Virus record (IMG/VR): IMGVR_UViG_2529292716_000008
DNA: 10,137 nucleotides
Strand: one strand, 5' to 3'
DNA from: a virus
Taxonomy: Duplodnaviria > Heunggongvirae > Uroviricota > Caudoviricetes
In this document: in pieces, positions 1 through 6,358 of the stretch
Layout of the letters: each line of letters starts with the position of its first letter
How positions within the stretch are numbered: position 1 is the stretch's first letter
Position numbers and translations under genes: made by a program
The notes under the pieces: generated by a model
Told to the model about the DNA's origin: nothing
The model's database searches: none
What the model saw: only the letters and a program-made list of their open reading frames with translations

Positions 1-1239
1 ATGAGCAGCGCAATTCATAGACTTAGCGACACTCTTTTACGAAAATTAAGCGGATCACCAACCACAAAAAACGCCTTTTTTAATGACGGTGGCAATCTTA
101 GCGTAAGACATTCCACCAGCGGCCTGTTAACCTGGTATTTCACTTACAGGGCCGGAACTGGCAGGCAGGTATCACCGGAACGCCTGAGACTGGGCAACTA
201 TCCCGATCTGAGCCTGAAAGCAGCCAGGGAAAAAGCGGCACAGTGTCGCGCCTGGCTGGCTGAGGGGAAAAATCCGCGCTATGAGCTTAATCGTGCTGTA
301 CAGGATGCGTTAGCCCCCGTGACAGTTAAGGAAGCGCTCACTTACTGGCTTGAATCGTATGCAAAGGAAAAGCGCACTGACTACGAATCACTGAAAAGCC
401 GGATCAATAAACACATAATCAGCCAGATTGGCGCTTTGCCGTTGGAAAAATGCGAGCTACGGCACTGGTTGGCATGTTTTGACCAGATGGCAAAGCGAAG
501 CCCAGTATCTGCCGGATTTTTGCTACAGGTATGCAAACAGGCGCTTAAGTACTGCCGAAAACGACGATACGCAATCAGCAACGTTCTTGATGATATGGTT
601 GTCGGTGATGTGGGAAAAAAAGCAGAAATAAGCGAGCGCGTACTAACAAACAAGGAGCTTGGGGAATTACTCCGCGCCCTGGATGAAAAAATTTACCCAC
701 CGTACTACAGCGCCCTGATTCGCCTCCTGATTGTCTTCGGATGCCGTGCCACTGAGCTAAGACGCTCTGAGGTCCAGGAATGGGATTTTAAAGAAATGCT
801 CTGGACCGTGCCGAAAGAACACAGCAAAACGAAGGTAGCAATATTCAGGCCAATACCGGAAGCGATCTTGCCGTTCGTAACGAAGCTGGTGGAGCAGAAC
901 AGGCACACGGGATTATTGCTCGGAGAACTGAAAGGGCAATCATCCGTATCAGAGTACGGAAGAACGGCACACAGACGCATTAATCAAGCCCCCTGGACGT
1001 TGCACGACATCCGGCACACGTTTACAACGATGCTGAACGATTTAGGCGTGGATCCTCATGTAGTGGAGCAGCTAACCGCGCACCAGTTGCCAGGAGTGCA
1101 ACGAGTCTATAATCACTCCCGTTATCTCGATGCAAAACGTGACGCTCTTAATCTATGGGTTGAGCGTCTCGAGCTTCTCCAGAACAATGATGAAAAAATC
1201 GTTGTTATGACCCCGCGAATTTACTCCCAAAATTCTTGA
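1..1239 (+). CDS. int: Tyrosine recombinase / integrase, P4-like family
   Basis: 412-aa ORF starting at window position 1. C-terminal catalytic signature of tyrosine recombinases is visible: HxxR box (LHDIRHTF) and a downstream Tyr (RVYNHSRY). Length and layout are typical of P4-type integrases of integrated elements. The att site and any flanking tRNA lie outside the window. Confidence 0.9.
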   Translation: MSSAIHRLSDTLLRKLSGSPTTKNAFFNDGGNLSVRHSTSGLLTWYFTYRAGTGRQVSPERLRLGNYPDLSLKAAREKAAQCRAWLAEGKNPRYELNRAVQDALAPVTVKEALTYWLESYAKEKRTDYESLKSRINKHIISQIGALPLEKCELRHWLACFDQMAKRSPVSAGFLLQVCKQALKYCRKRRYAISNVLDDMVVGDVGKKAEISERVLTNKELGELLRALDEKIYPPYYSALIRLLIVFGCRATELRRSEVQEWDFKEMLWTVPKEHSKTKVAIFRPIPEAILPFVTKLVEQNRHTGLLLGELKGQSSVSEYGRTAHRRINQAPWTLHDIRHTFTTMLNDLGVDPHVVEQLTAHQLPGVQRVYNHSRYLDAKRDALNLWVERLELLQNNDEKIVVMTPRIYSQNS

Positions 1240-1543: not shown

Positions 1544-1598
1544 GGTGATGCTGCCAACTTACTGATTTAGTGTATGATGGTGTTTTTGAGGTGCTCCA

Positions 1599-1874
1599 GT
1601 GGCTTCTGTTTCTATCAGCTGTCCCTCCTGTTCAGCTACTGACGGGGTGGTGCGTAACGGCAAAAGCACTGCCGGACATCAGCGCTATCTCTGCTCTCAC
1701 TGCCGTAAAACATGGCAACTGCAGTTCACTTACACCGCTTCTCAACCCGGTACGCACCAGAAAATCATTGATATGGCCATGAATGGCGTTGGATGCCGGG
1801 CAACTGCACGCATTATGGGCGTTGGCCTCAACACGATTTTACGTCACTTAAAAAACTCAGGCCGCAGTCGGTAA
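1599..1874 (+). CDS. insA: IS1 InsA (transposition inhibitor / N-terminal part of InsAB' transposase)
   Basis: 91-aa [43 protein letters not shown]... with zinc-finger-like CxxC...CxxC and HTH region, recognised as IS1 InsA. Confidence 0.9.
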
Positions 1875-2296
1875 CCTTGCGCATACAGCCGGGCAGTGAC
1901 GTCATCGTCTGCGCGGAAATGGACGAACAGTGGGGCTATGTCGGGGCTAAATCGCGCCAGCGCTGGCTGTTTTACGCGTATGACAGTCTCCGGAAGACGG
2001 TTGTTGCGCACGTATTCGGTGAACGCACTATGGCGACGCTGGGGCGTCTTATGAGCCTGCTGTCACCCTTTGACGTGGTGATATGGATGACGGATGGCTG
2101 GCCGCTGTATGAATCCCGCCTGAAGGGAAAGCTGCACGTAATCAGCAAGCGATATACGCAGCGAATTGAGCGGCATAACCTGAATCTGAGGCAGCACCTG
2201 GCACGGCTGGGACGGAAGTCGCTGTCGTTCTCAAAATCGGTGGAGCTGCATGACAAAGTCATCGGGCATTATCTGAACATAAAACACTATCAATAA
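1793..2296 (+). CDS. insB: IS1 InsB reading frame (expressed as InsAB' transposase by -1 frameshift at the A6C motif)
   Basis: ORF in the -1 frame relative to insA, overlapping its 3' end. The A6C slippery motif at 1850-1856 is the known IS1 frameshift site. Coordinates are those of the open frame from the ORF track, not an independent start. Confidence 0.85.
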
Positions 2297-2311
2297 GTTG
2301 GAGTCATTACC

Positions 2312-2425: not shown

Positions 2426-2635
2426 ATGCGTGAAATAAATGAAGATCGCGTAATCCGTGAGGATGAATGTCGTAAGTTAACTGGAGTGTGCCGCACTACA
2501 CGTTACGAACTGGAGAAAAAAGGGCGCTTTCCGTCACGTCTTAATCTGGGCGGTCGTTCTGTAGGGTGGCTGCTGTCCGAGGTTATGGAATGGGTTAAAA
2601 GCCGGGATCGCATTAATTCAGGTAAGGCAGTGTAA
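2426..2635 (+). CDS. alpA: AlpA-family (MerR-like HTH) transcriptional regulator
   Basis: 69 aa from the ATG at 2426, in frame within track ORF 2339..2635. Carries the AlpA-type motif ...LTGVCRTTRYELEKKGRFPSRLNLGGRSVGWLLSEVMEWV... Size matches the ~70-aa AlpA family. I prefer the ATG at 2426 over the upstream GTG at 2339, which would add a low-complexity 29-aa leader. Confidence 0.8.
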   Translation: MREINEDRVIREDECRKLTGVCRTTRYELEKKGRFPSRLNLGGRSVGWLLSEVMEWVKSRDRINSGKAV

Positions 2636-2662
2636 AGGGGAGCATATGACACATAAAACAAA

Positions 2663-2682
2663 GGCGACCTGGGGCGGTCGCC
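2663..2682. terminator. GC-rich hairpin between convergent transcription units (putative bidirectional terminator)
   Basis: GGCGACC (2663-2669) / GGTCGCC (2676-2682) stem with a 6-nt loop. On the minus strand it is followed by TTTGTTTTAT (good T-tract); on the plus strand by AGTTTGG (weak). Sits just after the alpA stop (2635) and downstream of the minus-strand unit. Confidence 0.45.
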
Positions 2683-2746
2683 AGTTTGGAAACACTAAAC
2701 ATAAGCATGTCAATGATAGCCGCTATCAGGCTGGTGGGCAATGCTA

Positions 2747-2923
2747 TCAGTCTGTTTCAGTGCGTTGCCATAACTGCGAAGCTCTCTCCTTTGATGAGTA
2801 TTCTTTAAGGTACTTCTCAAGGGCAAAAGAACACGGCGCGAATCGTTCTGATTCATGCTCTTTCTTTCTGCGTCGTCTTTTTCGTGCAGGTGATGTTTTT
2901 TTGGTTGATTCTTCGTTGGTCAT
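2747..2923 (-). CDS. Possible small basic protein (58 aa), very tentative
   Basis: Minus-strand ORF translated by hand: MTNEESTKKTSPARKRRRRKKEHESERFAPCSFALEKYLKEYSSKERASQLWQRTETD. It lies between the minus-strand regulator gene and the hairpin terminator. There is no convincing SD, and the region is purine-rich on the minus strand, which produces K/R/E-rich ORFs by chance. Below the 60-aa cutoff of the ORF track. Confidence 0.2.
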   Translation of the reverse strand: MTNEESTKKTSPARKRRRRKKEHESERFAPCSFALEKYLKEYSSKERASQLWQRTETD

Positions 2924-2980
2924 TGTGTGCGCCTGTAAAGCAATGCGCCGGAGTTCCTCACACCACGGCGCTGATAGTGA

Positions 2981-3286
2981 TTATTCTGATTCTTTGGCCT
3001 TGCGGCGCTGGAGTTCTTCGCGTGCAACGGTGATAAGCTGCCCGATTTCCTCCGCTGCCTTGATGCCGATTTGTTCGACATTAGCTAGGGCATCCAGTGA
3101 AGACACAAGGGGATTTTCTCCACTTCCTTCTGCCTGGCGCCTGGCGATCTCACCGCGTACAGCCGTAACTATAAAATTCGCTTTAGTTTCCCCTGGCTGT
3201 AGGGATGCCTCAATGCCACTCACTACTTCATGTGGAAATCTGGCATTCAGTTGCTGTGACTTATTGTTAACAGAACTCCTGGACAT
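2981..3286 (-). CDS. Small DNA-binding regulator, possibly ribbon-helix-helix type (candidate island repressor)
   Basis: 101 aa from the ATG at 3286 (MSRSSVNNKSQQLNARFPHEVVSGIEASLQPGETKANFIVTAVRGEIARRQ...), preceded by a strong SD (GGAGGTG, plus-strand complement at 3293-3299). The N-terminus has a beta-strand / helix / loop / helix pattern compatible with an RHH fold. Divergently oriented from the downstream + operon, with repeated operator-like sites in the shared intergenic region. Fold assignment is inference only. Confidence 0.55.
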   Translation of the reverse strand: MSRSSVNNKSQQLNARFPHEVVSGIEASLQPGETKANFIVTAVRGEIARRQAEGSGENPLVSSLDALANVEQIGIKAAEEIGQLITVAREELQRRKAKESE

Positions 3287-3329
3287 GTTTGCACCTCCCA
3301 TTAATAACGGGATGCAGTGTAATACAAAA

Positions 3330-3384
3330 GTGAATACCAAAAAAGACTTGAAATGGTATTCACCTAAATGTAATGTGAATACCA
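3330..3384. promoter_or_regulatory. Three copies of a 10-bp operator-like site GTGAATACCA (direct, inverted, direct) in a divergent promoter region
   Basis: GTGAATACCA at 3330-3339, its reverse complement TGGTATTCAC at 3354-3363, and GTGAATACCA at 3375-3384. Centre-to-centre spacing is 24 and 21 bp. Located between the minus-strand regulator start (3286) and the first + operon gene (3487). Confidence 0.55.
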
Positions 3385-3421
3385 CAAGTGCTGATACATG
3401 CAATTCAGCAATTGAAACGAC

Positions 3422-3458
3422 GAAGCCCCGCAAGTGTCGTTACCACTCGCAGGGCTTC
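3422..3458 (+). other. Imperfect hairpin in the leader of the + operon
   Basis: GAAGCCC (3422-3428) pairs with GGGCTTC (3452-3458). An inner CGCAAGTG / CACTCGCA near-complement extends the stem. Ends ~30 nt upstream of the ATG at 3487. No T-tract, so not a classic terminator. Confidence 0.3.
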
Positions 3459-3486
3459 TAACCAACAACGTAAACGAGGAGCCGTT

Positions 3487-3684
3487 ATGGTTGCCGTAAA
3501 TCATATACCACACCTTGTACACACACAAACGGCCTTTGTGTGGCGTTTTCTGGCCCTGAGTGCCGGAGAATCTCAAATCATCCACGTAACCGCCTGGACG
3601 GAACGCGAAGCGCGTAACCGTTGCCCGTCAGGTTGTGTTGCTGTATTCGCCGCCCGTATTCGTCAGGAGGTGTGCCATGCCTGA
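3487..3684 (+). CDS. Small hypothetical protein (65 aa); faint resemblance to Icd-like small proteins of P4-like islands (unverified)
   Basis: ATG at 3487 preceded by GAGGAG (3476-3481, 5-nt spacer). Protein MVAVNHIPHLVHTQTAFVWRFLALSAGESQIIHVTAWTEREARNRCPSGCVAVFAARIRQEVCHA. First gene of the operon leading to the primase. The Icd-like resemblance is from memory of the family and needs a search. Confidence 0.5.
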   Translation: MVAVNHIPHLVHTQTAFVWRFLALSAGESQIIHVTAWTEREARNRCPSGCVAVFAARIRQEVCHA

Positions 3685-3997
3685 CATGACCAATTACCAG
3701 TACCTGATTAATCCGCATTTTAACTGTGAGCATGATATTGCTAAAAAGGTTTATTCCGCTGCGGATGGGGCTACTGACAATATATCAATGGCTGTTGCGT
3801 CAATTGGTAGCCTGATGTGGCATGCGTCAGAAAATGAGGAATATGACGAAAAGGCTATGCGCATTGACATGGGTAATATTGGCTTGTTACTGGCAATGCT
3901 TGGGCAGTTTGATATTTCGTTACGGTGCACCATTGAAAATGCCACAGATGCATTAAATGCCATAGAGAAAGCGAATACTGATTCAAATCTGAGATAA
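3677..3997 (+). CDS. Hypothetical acidic protein (106 aa)
   Basis: ATG at 3677 preceded by AGGAGG (3665-3670, 6-nt spacer). Overlaps the upstream gene's stop by 8 nt (translational coupling). Protein MPDMTNYQYLINPHFNCEHDIAKKVYSAADGATDNISMAVASIGSLMWHASENEEYDEKAMRIDMGN... No motif I can recognise. Confidence 0.55.
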   Translation: MPDMTNYQYLINPHFNCEHDIAKKVYSAADGATDNISMAVASIGSLMWHASENEEYDEKAMRIDMGNIGLLLAMLGQFDISLRCTIENATDALNAIEKANTDSNLR

Positions 3998-4003
3998 ATA
4001 ATC

Positions 4004-4303
4004 ATGAGAACGTATTTATCTGGCTTGACTGCCAGCGGTTATGCACACCCCAAAATTATCCCCGGCGCTATTTATCTGGATAAGAACGGTAACAGAGTAA
4101 CGGTAAAAGAACTGATGTTTGACCGTGTGTATTTTATTCGTGATGGCTATTCATTTCATAGTTCGCTGAACGTGGAGATCTTTATTAGCAGATTCAGGCG
4201 GGAAATCCCGCTTTCCAGAAATAACCATGTGTCATGTATGGATGTTGATAAAAAACTACAGGAACTGAAAAACATGATTGCCGCGTGGAGAGAGCAGAAA
4301 TGA
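4004..4303 (+). CDS. Hypothetical protein (99 aa)
   Basis: ATG at 4004, 7 nt after the upstream stop. Its stop overlaps the primase start (ATGA at 4300-4303). Weak SD. Protein MRTYLSGLTASGYAHPKIIPGAIYLDKNGNRVTVKELMFDRVYFIRDGYSFHSS... No recognisable motif. Confidence 0.5.
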   Translation: MRTYLSGLTASGYAHPKIIPGAIYLDKNGNRVTVKELMFDRVYFIRDGYSFHSSLNVEIFISRFRREIPLSRNNHVSCMDVDKKLQELKNMIAAWREQK

Positions 4304-6102
4304 AAAAAGCGCCAAATTTAAAACACCAGCCGCGTGACAAAATGACGGAAGTCATCATTTTTGCGGGTAATGATGCGTGGGCACATGCGAAGCAGTGGCA
4401 GGAACAGGACGGGCGACTGGCTGGCGACAGCGTGCCTCCTGTCTGGCTTGGAGAACAACAACTTGCCGAACTGGATAAGCTGCAAATCGTACCGGACGGA
4501 CGCTATCGGGTGCGTCTCTACCAGGCGGGGTTATTGCGTCCGGGGCTTGTTAATACCATCGGGCAGAAACTGGCAGCGGCAGGTGTCAGGGATGCTGATT
4601 ATTACCCTGAAGGAATGCACAGCCAGAAACGGGAGAACTGGCGCGAATATCTGGAACGTGAACGGGCAGAGCAGGCGGAAAAGAAAAAGGTAGTTGAACT
4701 GCCTGTAAAGAAAAAAGAGCGGGTAAAAGACGATAACGCTTCATCACTGGCGCTTAACCAGATGGGAGCAAGTCAACGCGGCGAAGTTCTCCTGGCACAT
4801 TATGGCGGTGAACTGGCGATTCATGCTGACTCTGACACTGTTCACCATTACAACGGCGTTGTATGGGAGCCAGTACAGGATAAAGAATTACAGCGAGCTA
4901 TGGCACAGATTTTCATTGATGCGGAGATCAGCTATTCGCAGAACGCCATTAAATCGGCGGTCGATACCATGAAGTTAAGTTTGCCTGTAATGGGGAATAC
5001 AGCCCGTAACCTGATTGGATTCAGTAACGGGGTATTTGATACCAGAACAGGTAATTTTCGGGAGCATAACAAAAACGACTGGTTGTTAATTGCCAGTGAA
5101 TTACCTTTCAGCCCACCAGCAGAGGGGGAAACGCTGGCAACACATGCGCCGAATTTCTGGAAGTGGTTACGCCGTTCGGTGGCTGAGAATGACCGCAAGG
5201 CGGATCGCGTACTGGCTGTATTATTCATGGTGCTGGCGAACCGGTACGACTGGCAGTTATTCATTGAGGTAACAGGTCCAGGGGGAAGTGGTAAAAGCGT
5301 GATGGCGGAGATTTGCACCATGCTGGCGGGTAAGGCCAACACAGTATCGGCAAGCATGAAGGCGCTGGAAGATGCAAGGGAACGCGCGTTAGTGGTTGGC
5401 TTTTCGCTGATTATCATGCCGGATATGACCCGCTACGCTGGTGATGGGGCAGGGATTAAGGCCATTACAGGCGGTGACAAGGTGGCAATTGACCCGAAAC
5501 ACAAAGCCCCCTACTCAACGCGTATTCCGGCAGTAGTGCTGGCGGTTAACAATAACGCCATGTCATTCAGTGACCGCAGCGGGGGGATCTCACGTCGTCG
5601 GGTGATATTCAATTTTTCGGAAGTTGTACCGGAGAACGAACGCGACCCCATGCTGGCAGAAAAAATAGAAGGAGAGCTGGCGGTTGTGATTCGCCACCTG
5701 CTTACTCGTTTTTCTGACCAGGACGAAGCTAAACGCCTGCTGTATGAGCAGCAGAAATCAGAAGAAGCTCTGGTGATAAAACGCGAGGGCGATTCGCTGG
5801 TGGACTTCTGCGGCTATCTCATGTCGTCGGTAATGTGTGATGGTCTGTTAGTGGGTAATGCCGAAATTATTCCGTTCAGTCCGCGCAGGTATCTTTATCA
5901 CGCCTATCTGGCATATATGAGGGCACACGGATTCGGTAAACCTGTAACACTGACGCGCTTCGGTAAAGATATGCCGGGGGCAATGGCGGAATATGGCAGG
6001 GAGTATATGAAACGGAAAACGAAGCACGGTTTGCGTTCAAATGTGACCCTGACAGAGGATTCAGAAGACTGGATGCCATCATGTGCAATAGGTCACAAAT
6101 GA
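4300..6102 (+). CDS. P4 alpha-like replication protein: primase / SF3 (D5-type) helicase with C-terminal origin-binding region
   Basis: 600 aa from the ATG at 4300, with SD GGAGAGAG at 4287-4294. The track's GTG at 4285 is an alternative start. Walker A GPGGSGKS and a downstream ITGGDKVAIDPKHK motif are typical of the P4-family primase C-terminal / D5 helicase region. Followed immediately by TGTTCACC iterons, the P4 alpha binding sequence. Confidence 0.85.
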   Translation: MKKAPNLKHQPRDKMTEVIIFAGNDAWAHAKQWQEQDGRLAGDSVPPVWLGEQQLAELDKLQIVPDGRYRVRLYQAGLLRPGLVNTIGQKLAAAGVRDADYYPEGMHSQKRENWREYLERERAEQAEKKKVVELPVKKKERVKDDNASSLALNQMGASQRGEVLLAHYGGELAIHADSDTVHHYNGVVWEPVQDKELQRAMAQIFIDAEISYSQNAIKSAVDTMKLSLPVMGNTARNLIGFSNGVFDTRTGNFREHNKNDWLLIASELPFSPPAEGETLATHAPNFWKWLRRSVAENDRKADRVLAVLFMVLANRYDWQLFIEVTGPGGSGKSVMAEICTMLAGKANTVSASMKALEDARERALVVGFSLIIMPDMTRYAGDGAGIKAITGGDKVAIDPKHKAPYSTRIPAVVLAVNNNAMSFSDRSGGISRRRVIFNFSEVVPENERDPMLAEKIEGELAVVIRHLLTRFSDQDEAKRLLYEQQKSEEALVIKREGDSLVDFCGYLMSSVMCDGLLVGNAEIIPFSPRRYLYHAYLAYMRAHGFGKPVTLTRFGKDMPGAMAEYGREYMKRKTKHGLRSNVTLTEDSEDWMPSCAIGHK

Positions 6103-6127
6103 CGATGGAAAAAATTAAACTTATGGA

Positions 6128-6358
6128 ATAACTGTTCACCACTGTTCACCCTGCAATAAATGTCTTTTATATCAGTATATTATAGGGTGAACAGTTATTT
6201 ATGAACTGTTCACCAAACTATTCACTGTTCACCTTTTTGATTCTTTATTGAGCTTTAAGGGTGAACAGTGGTGAACAGTTGGTGAATAGTTTTTGTGAAA
6301 CTGTTAACCCATTAACATCATGAATAAAAAGGGAAAATTGCAAAAGGTGAACAGGTGA
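6128..6358. repeat. Iteron cluster: about nine copies of TGTTCACC / GGTGAACA flanking an AT-rich segment; putative ori (P4 ori/crr-like)
   Basis: Direct TGTTCACC at 6133, 6143, 6207 and 6226. Inverted GGTGAACA at 6186, 6260, 6270 and 6346, plus degenerate GGTGAATA at 6281. AT-rich stretch at 6151-6185. TGTTCACC is the type I iteron of the P4 ori and crr, bound by P4 alpha. Confidence 0.75.

Follow-up and report, generated by a model that had tools for sequence, protein, structure and literature searches.

The 10,137-nt stretch of viral DNA analysed here (IMG/VR record IMGVR_UViG_2529292716_000008, hereafter the window) carries an enterobacterial phage satellite of the phage-inducible chromosomal island (PICI) type, a small integrative island that is not P4. 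Three small open reading frames (ORF1, ORF2 and ORF3) are packed directly upstream of its primase gene, pri-rep (Table 1). A strong Shine-Dalgarno sequence (ACGAGGAG, 3473-3480) precedes ORF1; the start codon of ORF2 is preceded by CAGGAGGTG and lies within the end of ORF1, the two genes sharing the 8 nt ATGCCTGA (3677-3684). The stop codon of ORF2 and the start of ORF3 are separated by a 6-nt spacer, and the primase ATG at 4300 forms part of an ATGA (4300-4303) shared with the stop codon of ORF3, with GGAGAG upstream. An earlier note had reported three ORFs of these sizes with the 8-nt overlap and the ATGA junction, and both direct reading of the sequence and a set of 76 loci carrying an ORF2 homologue, obtained by scanning IMG/VR with ORF2, confirmed this description. 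Across these loci, the 8-nt overlap was found in 76/76, the 6-nt spacer in 75/75 and the ATGA in 73/73 cases, and the last junction was also kept in nine loci in which the ORF3 counterpart, a member of the DUF4222 family, differs by up to about 70%. Such conservation of overlaps and spacer is far beyond chance expectation. The tight coupling proposed previously is thus invariant, the layout points to co-expression with the replication protein, and the co-occurrence of the block is conserved across related islands.

No break in the reading frame occurs in any of the 52 distinct haplotypes of ORF2 or the 48 of ORF3, and both alternative frames hold stop codons in every one of them. Variant sites in ORF3 are distributed over the three codon positions as 24/20/46, an excess at the third position, with 42 synonymous and 48 non-synonymous changes. 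The corresponding values for ORF2 are 24/15/31, with 23 synonymous and 47 non-synonymous changes, and this gene evolves faster than ORF3. The three ORFs are genuine genes, forming the promoter-proximal part of an early (replication) operon. That they are open by chance, or that they are pseudogenes decaying in a dead island, an idea for which the IS1 insertion and the split protease-capsid gene of the window island could be invoked, is scarcely credible and is refuted by the conservation data, since in every haplotype these frames are intact and the others closed, the ribosome-binding sites and overlaps are conserved, the matches to hidden Markov models (HMMs) are significant and the genes are found in hundreds of genomes.

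Families of the three products

The earlier note had found no recognisable motif in any of the three products. This did not hold for ORF1 and ORF3, which are members of known families with studied representatives (PMC11897509, PMC3378721); the element in which they lie is also of a known kind, and RefSeq already gives both of them names. ORF1 matched the NCBIfam model NF033153 (host cell division inhibitor Icd-like protein) over residues 17-60, with 64.8 bits (E = 5.2e-18; cutoff 25 bits), and its RefSeq annotation is Icd-like. It is 97% identical to ECs1577 from Sp7 of Escherichia coli O157 Sakai, an element also known as O-island 51 (OI-51) or CP-933C and later named EcCIEDL933 (PMC3378721; bioRxiv 10.1101/2022.09.08.507074). 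In BLASTP, residues 13-58 of ORF1 aligned with residues 8-50 of P1 Icd (39% identity), spanning the FtsZ-binding core. P1 Icd binds FtsZ and blocks Z-ring formation, residues 12-51 being sufficient (Zhao et al., PMC11897509), and four of the residues predicted to lie at the FtsZ interface (R15, E32, A48 and R49) are conserved in ORF1. No match to ORF1 was found among PDB sequences.

The genetic setting is also similar. P1 Icd, encoded in the immI operon (c4 RNA, icd, ant1/ant2), matches NF033153 with 52.6 bits, and icd, like ORF1, is a small first gene with a stop codon overlapping the next start, by 4 nt with ant1 in P1; it is annotated as required for ant expression. ORF1 thus has the leader position, coupled to the next gene (here by 8 nt), that characterises Icd-like leaders. 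However, the gene after ORF1 is not an Ant homologue, ORF1 lacks the C-terminal tail of P1 Icd and, in contrast to P1, an Rfam scan upstream of ORF1 revealed no C4/cI-type antisense RNA.

ORF1 alleles in the 76 loci range from 45% to 100% identity, and a scan of genome contigs with ORF1 yielded at least two loci. Searches (blastn/tblastn) of 50,697 phage records with the region, ORF1 and ORF3 gave a single weak match, between ORF1 and a 16.5-kb "induced prophage" record, and nothing else. Some related islands carry tandem Icd-like genes (L051, 2918-3605; L075, 2502-3156; L080, 3105-3843), a short form followed by an N-extended form of 168 aa ("ash family"), the latter resembling the Icd-like effector described for the cell-death locus of ECOR61.

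ORF3 matched Pfam DUF4222 (PF13973) over residues 16-67 with 61.1 bits (gathering threshold 27 bits) and is a basic protein (isoelectric point, pI, 9.7). Compared over its full length with ECs1581 of Sakai, it shows 31% identity, both proteins having 99 residues. The translated ECs1581 has a computed mass of 11.70 kDa and a pI of 10.09, equal to the values given for RgdR by Flockhart et al. (PMC3378721), and we therefore identify ECs1581 as RgdR. For ECs1581 and c1493, RgdR has been shown to activate LEE1 and type III secretion and to repress motility, and its binding to DNA is non-specific (PMC3378721); it is encoded by all E. coli PICIs analysed by Fillol-Salom et al. (PMC6092414). ORF3 resembles RgdR of OI-51/CP-933C/Sp7 in its DUF4222 domain, length and basic character, and in the position of its gene, the last of the small ones ahead of pri-rep, with which it shares an ATGA; the flanking Icd-like gene is also shared, at 97% identity. 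However, the identity between the two proteins is only 31%, and residues 20-22 of ORF3 are PGA rather than RGD. Because of this substitution, we place ORF3 on sequence grounds in the DUF4222 family, as an RgdR allele that has diverged, and do not call it RgdR in the narrow sense.

An AlphaFold2 model of ORF3 built from 127 sequences had a mean predicted local distance difference test (pLDDT) score of 79, exceeding 90 at residues 21-60, and showed an SH3/Tudor-like barrel of five strands that leads into a long C-terminal helix; comparison with PDB sequences gave only chance matches. Structure prediction, recommended in the earlier note, was therefore informative for ORF3 but not for ORF2, for which the single-sequence model, a two-helix hairpin, reached a pLDDT of only 45 and was judged too poor for a fold search. 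The ORF2 family is too shallow for an alignment to improve the prediction.

ORF2 is the sole member of the trio without a described relative, and it is here that the undescribed function anticipated for the whole block may still lie, ORF1 and ORF3 belonging to known families. It matched only phrog_15327 (E = 7e-71; function unassigned), with no match in Pfam, NCBIfam, PADLOC or PDB sequences. It is nevertheless a real and common gene: of 5,426 complete E. coli genomes, 474 (about 9%) carry its DNA with an identity of at least 90%, and one genome can hold as many as six copies. The gene is invariably annotated as "hypothetical" and always coupled to an Icd-like gene. A word-indexed protein search retrieved close relatives only, mostly from E. 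coli. An exhaustive HMMER search yielded 15 matches, three of which are real remote homologues of 100-102 aa with 30-41% identity, and the long multi-stretch matches look like low-complexity ones. Homology of ORF2 to the DUF4222-adjacent proteins of Sakai and Shigella (ECs1580 type), suspected from a W..NE.D..R..LL pattern, was rejected (hhalign probability 0.1%).

The gene for the 41% identical homologue follows a 62-aa Icd-like ORF (59.8 bits), which it overlaps by 8 nt, with a divergent YlcI/YnfO gene upstream. The corresponding island has a ClpP-capsid fusion and an AAA_25 replicase and lacks DUF4222. In the island with the 30% identical homologue, the order is AlpA, Bro-N, an N-extended Icd-like protein, a 63-aa ORF, the ORF2 homologue, two small ORFs and a DUF927 primase. 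The association of ORF2 with Icd-like genes thus persists across different replicases. ORF2 itself is acidic (pI 4.5) and probably helical, and its small family has been seen in satellite-type islands only.

Related elements and a variable slot

Like the window, the left operon of P4 (Icd-like ORF, epsilon, orf151, orf106, alpha) has small genes before the primase. The stop codon of its Icd-like ORF (NF033153, 76 bits) overlaps the start of epsilon by 8 nt (GTGCGTAA), the same geometry as that of ORF1 and ORF2, and ORF2 therefore sits exactly at the position of epsilon. The AlpA of the window is homologous to P4 Vis (45% identity). However, BLASTP of ORF2 and ORF3 against epsilon, orf151 and orf106 (E up to 10) revealed no similarity, no sid, psu or delta gene was found among the window ORFs, and the window primase lacks the N-terminal part of P4 alpha and scored 96.1 bits with the P4 family model TIGR01613, under its cutoff of 108.7. 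The analogy with P4 drawn in the earlier note thus stands for the position of ORF2 and its overlap, and not for the element, which is of the PICI type. In the P4 record itself (L003, 8168-8364, minus strand), the Icd-like ORF, which has its own ribosome-binding site, corresponds to the C-terminal 65 codons of the "cI gene product (AA 1-137)". This obsolete 137-aa cI frame is labelled "transcriptional repressor", and it is probably from this annotation that the same label on the PHROG families matched by ORF1 derives.

The E. coli PICIs EcCICFT073 and EcCIEDL933, the latter a capsid-forming PICI (cf-PICI), have int, alpA, small genes including one of the RgdR family, pri-rep with its origin, and ssb (PMC6092414; bioRxiv 10.1101/2022.09.08.507074), an arrangement shared by the window. 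They differ in the gene content of the middle small-gene slot; moreover, the window island and its closest intact relative carry a protease-capsid fusion only, without portal, connectors, HNH or terminase.

The relationship between the window and the 76 loci is that of a mosaic. Identity jumps at about position 3650, in the last codons of ORF1: upstream of this point at most 15 loci are at least 90% identical to the window, versus 68-75 downstream. In 71-73 loci this stretch of high identity takes in ORF2 and ORF3 and reaches about 120 codons into the primase gene, which it covers completely in 57. In two loci, ORF2 is about 90% identical but is followed by an RgdR-type DUF4222 gene and a primase with 47% identity, the breakpoint lying in the first 12 codons of DUF4222. 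A chimeric DUF4222 gene occurs in L079 (734-1033) and L080 (4163-4462), its first 12 codons being identical to those of ORF3 and the remainder belonging to the RgdR-type allele, a structure that shows recombination within the 5' end of the gene.

The order Icd-like gene, small ORF, DUF4222 and primase recurs in loci with 38-42% DUF4222 identity, Sakai Sp7, Shigella and E. albertii. The slot between the Icd-like gene and DUF4222 contains three small ORFs in Sakai, three different ones in Shigella and one in E. albertii, and in the loci with 38-42% DUF4222 identity (L155-L158) it is filled by a 73-aa ORF.

Island context and neighbouring features

The genes of the island are arranged in the order int, IS1, alpA, divergent ylcI/ynfO, ORF1, ORF2, ORF3, pri-rep, origin iterons, ssb and ClpP-protease/capsid fusion (Table 1 gives the mapped features). 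As in Gram-negative PICIs, int, alpA and pri-rep with an adjacent origin are present, and tail and lysis genes are absent. From the set that characterises cf-PICIs (own capsid, protease, portal, connectors, HNH, TerS and TerL), the window has only the ClpP-protease/capsid fusion; some other islands with the trio are full cf-PICIs. An origin next to pri-rep is typical of PICIs (PMC6092414), and the iteron field is the presumed origin of replication. The iterons gave spurious matches to plant miRNAs in the Rfam scan.

Table 1. Coordinates of the three genes and of the other features mapped in the window
Feature	Position	Strand	Remarks
int	1-1239		First gene of the island
IS1 (InsA + InsB)	~1544-2311		Between int and alpA; perfect left inverted repeat 1544-1566
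alpA, AlpA-family helix-turn-helix regulator	2426-2635	+	Pfam Phage_AlpA, 59.9 bits
YlcI/YnfO-family gene (ylcI)	2981-3286	-	Divergent from the trio; NF041551, 59.2 bits; phrog_6522, positions 1-101 of 101
Three copies of GTGAATACCA (direct, inverted, direct), operator-like	3330-3384		Between ylcI and ORF1; repeat search
Hairpin, 15-nt arms	3422-3458	+	Just 5' of the ORF1 ribosome-binding site, in the presumed leader; inverted repeat
ORF1, Icd-like, 65 aa	3487-3684	+	ATG 3487, TGA 3682-3684; first gene of the operon
ORF2, acidic, probably helical, 106 aa	3677-3997	+	ATG 3677, TAA 3995-3997
ORF3, basic, DUF4222/RgdR family, 99 aa	4004-4303	+	ATG 4004, TGA 4301-4303
pri-rep (D5_N, SF3 helicase and Pox_D5 C-terminal domains)	4300-6102	+	Pfam D5_N, DUF5906, Pox_D5; phrog_864, E = 1.6e-187
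Iteron field ACTGTTCACC / GGTGAACAGT, ~10 copies, both orientations	6112-6355		Just 3' of the primase; repeat search

Among complete E. coli genomes, the closest intact island (L159, NZ_CP077499.1, locus 7001-16267) is flanked by yljB/cspD and clpS, lacks IS1 and has a counterpart of the window alpA, a helix-turn-helix gene of 69 aa. With a length of about 9.3 kb, it is slightly below the nominal PICI range of 10-15 kb. It ends after the capsid-protease fusion, without portal or terminase, its layout being intermediate between those of classical and full capsid-forming PICIs. The fusion of a ClpP-like prohead protease with the major capsid protein (7730-9597) is split in the window by a frameshift into ORFs of 381 and 252 aa. 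The same split occurs in an identical IMG/VR contig (L006), and the gene is a single ORF of 629 aa in L053, in L032 and in the island of E. coli O111:H8 strain 7-58 72A. Unless a sequencing error produced the split, the window copy of the island is probably defective.

The intergenic region between ylcI and ORF1 has several features that may be regulatory, and the ylcI product is a candidate regulator of the promoter region it contains. Among related loci, the GTGAATACCA sites are restricted to those with a YlcI allele at least 94% identical to that of the window, regardless of the AlpA or ORF1 allele. This distribution suggests that the triplet may be an operator for the YlcI-type regulator, physical linkage being an alternative cause. 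The strong leader hairpin is kept in Sakai Sp7 and is not followed by a U-tract; the 101-nt RNA containing it (3400-3500) has a folding energy of -29.3 kcal/mol (z = -2.05). The hairpin may act in the stability or processing of the leader, or in attenuation. A terminator-like hairpin at 3522-3542, followed by GCGTTTTCTG, is located in the 5' part of ORF1 and depends on the codons of one ORF1 allele. The number of terminator-like sites in the region was not above shuffle expectation. An open frame of 271 aa (2646-3461, plus strand), antisense to ylcI and homologous to ECs1576/WP_001304194, is annotated as a "hypothetical protein" in some genomes. Given the match of the opposite strand to the YlcI/YnfO HMM, this frame looks spurious.

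Possible roles of the operon

The reading that we favour, and consider fairly probable, is that of a coupled early operon in which ORF1 is an FtsZ blocker, ORF3 a transcription cofactor and ORF2 a protein that binds a host or helper protein. Once the island is induced, transcription of the operon would start from the 200-bp intergenic region between ylcI and ORF1, possibly through AlpA, as in the characterised PICIs, where AlpA is the helper-induced activator of the Gram-negative PICI cycle (PMC6092414); induction by helper phages and transfer through AlpA are known for EcCICFT073 and EcCIEDL933 (PMC6092414; bioRxiv 10.1101/2022.09.08.507074). Ribosomes translating ORF1 would be handed on to ORF2, ORF3 and pri-rep, and translation of ORF1 is probably needed to deliver them to the next gene, as for icd and ant in P1 and for the Icd-like ORF and epsilon in P4. 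ORF1 would bind FtsZ, stopping septation while the island replicates and is packaged; judged from its resemblance to P1 Icd, we put the chances of this role at about even. ORF3, a basic protein, would modulate transcription as a cofactor of low specificity, binding either nucleic acid or RNA polymerase. The binding of a host or helper-phage protein by ORF2 is the more tentative part, and we give it less weight than the targeting of FtsZ by ORF1.

Several observations weigh against this reading. The roles of the families come from homologues, and none of them from the three alleles found here. The identity of ORF1 to P1 Icd is only 39%, and Y24 of P1 Icd, a predicted FtsZ contact, is not conserved. 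ORF3 has no RGD motif, and a natural CGD variant of RgdR failed to activate type III secretion (PMC3378721). The promoter and its dependence on AlpA are putative, and a divergent YlcI-type gene with operator-like sites sits between alpA and the trio. The ORF2 model is unreliable, and the window island, with its IS1 and frameshifted capsid gene, may have lost function.

The earlier note had considered the three genes to be candidates for helper derepression, interference or anti-defence functions. According to this view, the trio, or at least ORF2, would manipulate the helper in the manner of P4 epsilon or P1 Ant, as antirepressors or otherwise. ORF2 follows an Icd-like ORF at the place of epsilon, with the same 8-nt overlap, and Ant1 likewise follows icd in P1. 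The slot that it occupies is variable, the protein is fast-evolving and acidic, and its family stays beside Icd-like genes through replicase swaps; crosstalk from a PICI to its helper is also known, for EcCIMP1 (PMC11773190). However, ORF2 has no similarity to epsilon or to the PADLOC, Pfam, NCBIfam and PDB entries, and position taken by itself is weak evidence. Furthermore, ORF1 and ORF3 are already assigned to other families, which leaves ORF2 as the one gene for which the idea survives, and in the E. coli PICIs investigated to date it is the helper that induces the island and not the reverse (PMC6092414). We consider it unlikely that this is the function of the trio, and no less unlikely that the ORF2 family and the alternating genes of the slot constitute a PICI counterpart of epsilon and Ant, Icd-coupled and binding a helper repressor or a host defence protein.

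A second alternative is that the operon constitutes an abortive-infection or superinfection-exclusion module, triggered by a phage protein, with the Icd-like protein as the growth-arrest effector. A precedent is provided by the prophage locus of ECOR61, at which cell death is triggered by the phage accessory gene orf24, and in which an Icd-like gene, linked to a primase within a six-gene unit, encodes the likely effector (Silas et al., bioRxiv 10.1101/2023.04.06.535777). Judging from its description, this locus resembles the trio in the linkage of the Icd-like gene to a DNA primase, its multi-gene organisation and the proposed effector role, and related islands carry the 168-aa N-extended Icd-like genes in tandem with the short form. 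However, the likeness is by description only, the ECOR61 protein has a long N-terminal extension whereas ORF1 of the window is the short form, and no PADLOC match (E up to 0.1) was obtained for ORF1-3, YlcI or the primase. Moreover, the favoured model also predicts growth arrest on phage induction of the satellite, and the two readings are compatible. As a description of the operon, we find such a module improbable.

ORF3, and perhaps ORF2, could also be accessory factors of Pri-Rep that load or target the helicase-primase at the iterons, any effects on host genes being secondary. The ATGA that joins DUF4222 to the primase, both in the 73 close loci and in the nine divergent ones, the joint conservation of ORF2, ORF3 and the first primase codons downstream of the sharp break, the basic character of ORF3 and the binding of DNA by RgdR (PMC3378721) are all consistent with such a role. 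However, co-variation of DUF4222 alleles with the N-terminal domain or the body of the primase, looked for as a test of partnership, was not seen: the identities of DUF4222, N-terminal domain and body are 34%, 72% and 29% between the window and Sakai, and 45%, 47% and 84% between the window and L156. The ORF2 family is also found in islands that have an AAA_25 or DUF927 replicase and no DUF4222, RgdR expressed alone acts in trans on host promoters, and truncated 63-aa copies are located away from primases (PMC3378721). This function is therefore doubtful, to about the same degree as the two previous alternatives.

Our analysis adds to the description of these islands the identification of the families, the invariant coupling geometry, the exact correspondence in position to P4 epsilon and P1 ant, and a mosaic map. 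It also corrects an annotation gap, since the block 5' of PICI primases runs from a homologue of a proven FtsZ inhibitor to a relative of RgdR, a regulator linked to virulence-gene expression in enterohaemorrhagic E. coli. The Icd-coupled position of ORF2 is one that holds antirepressors in P1 and P4. If its family were indeed their counterpart, an Icd-like leader plus a coupled effector would be a general module of satellites and plasmid-prophages, serving to hold division and then manipulate the helper. Uncontrolled PICI induction impairs growth of the host, as reported for EcCICFT073 (PMC6092414), and the families to which ORF1 and ORF3 belong provide one possible reason for this impairment and suggest why such islands can rewire host transcription.

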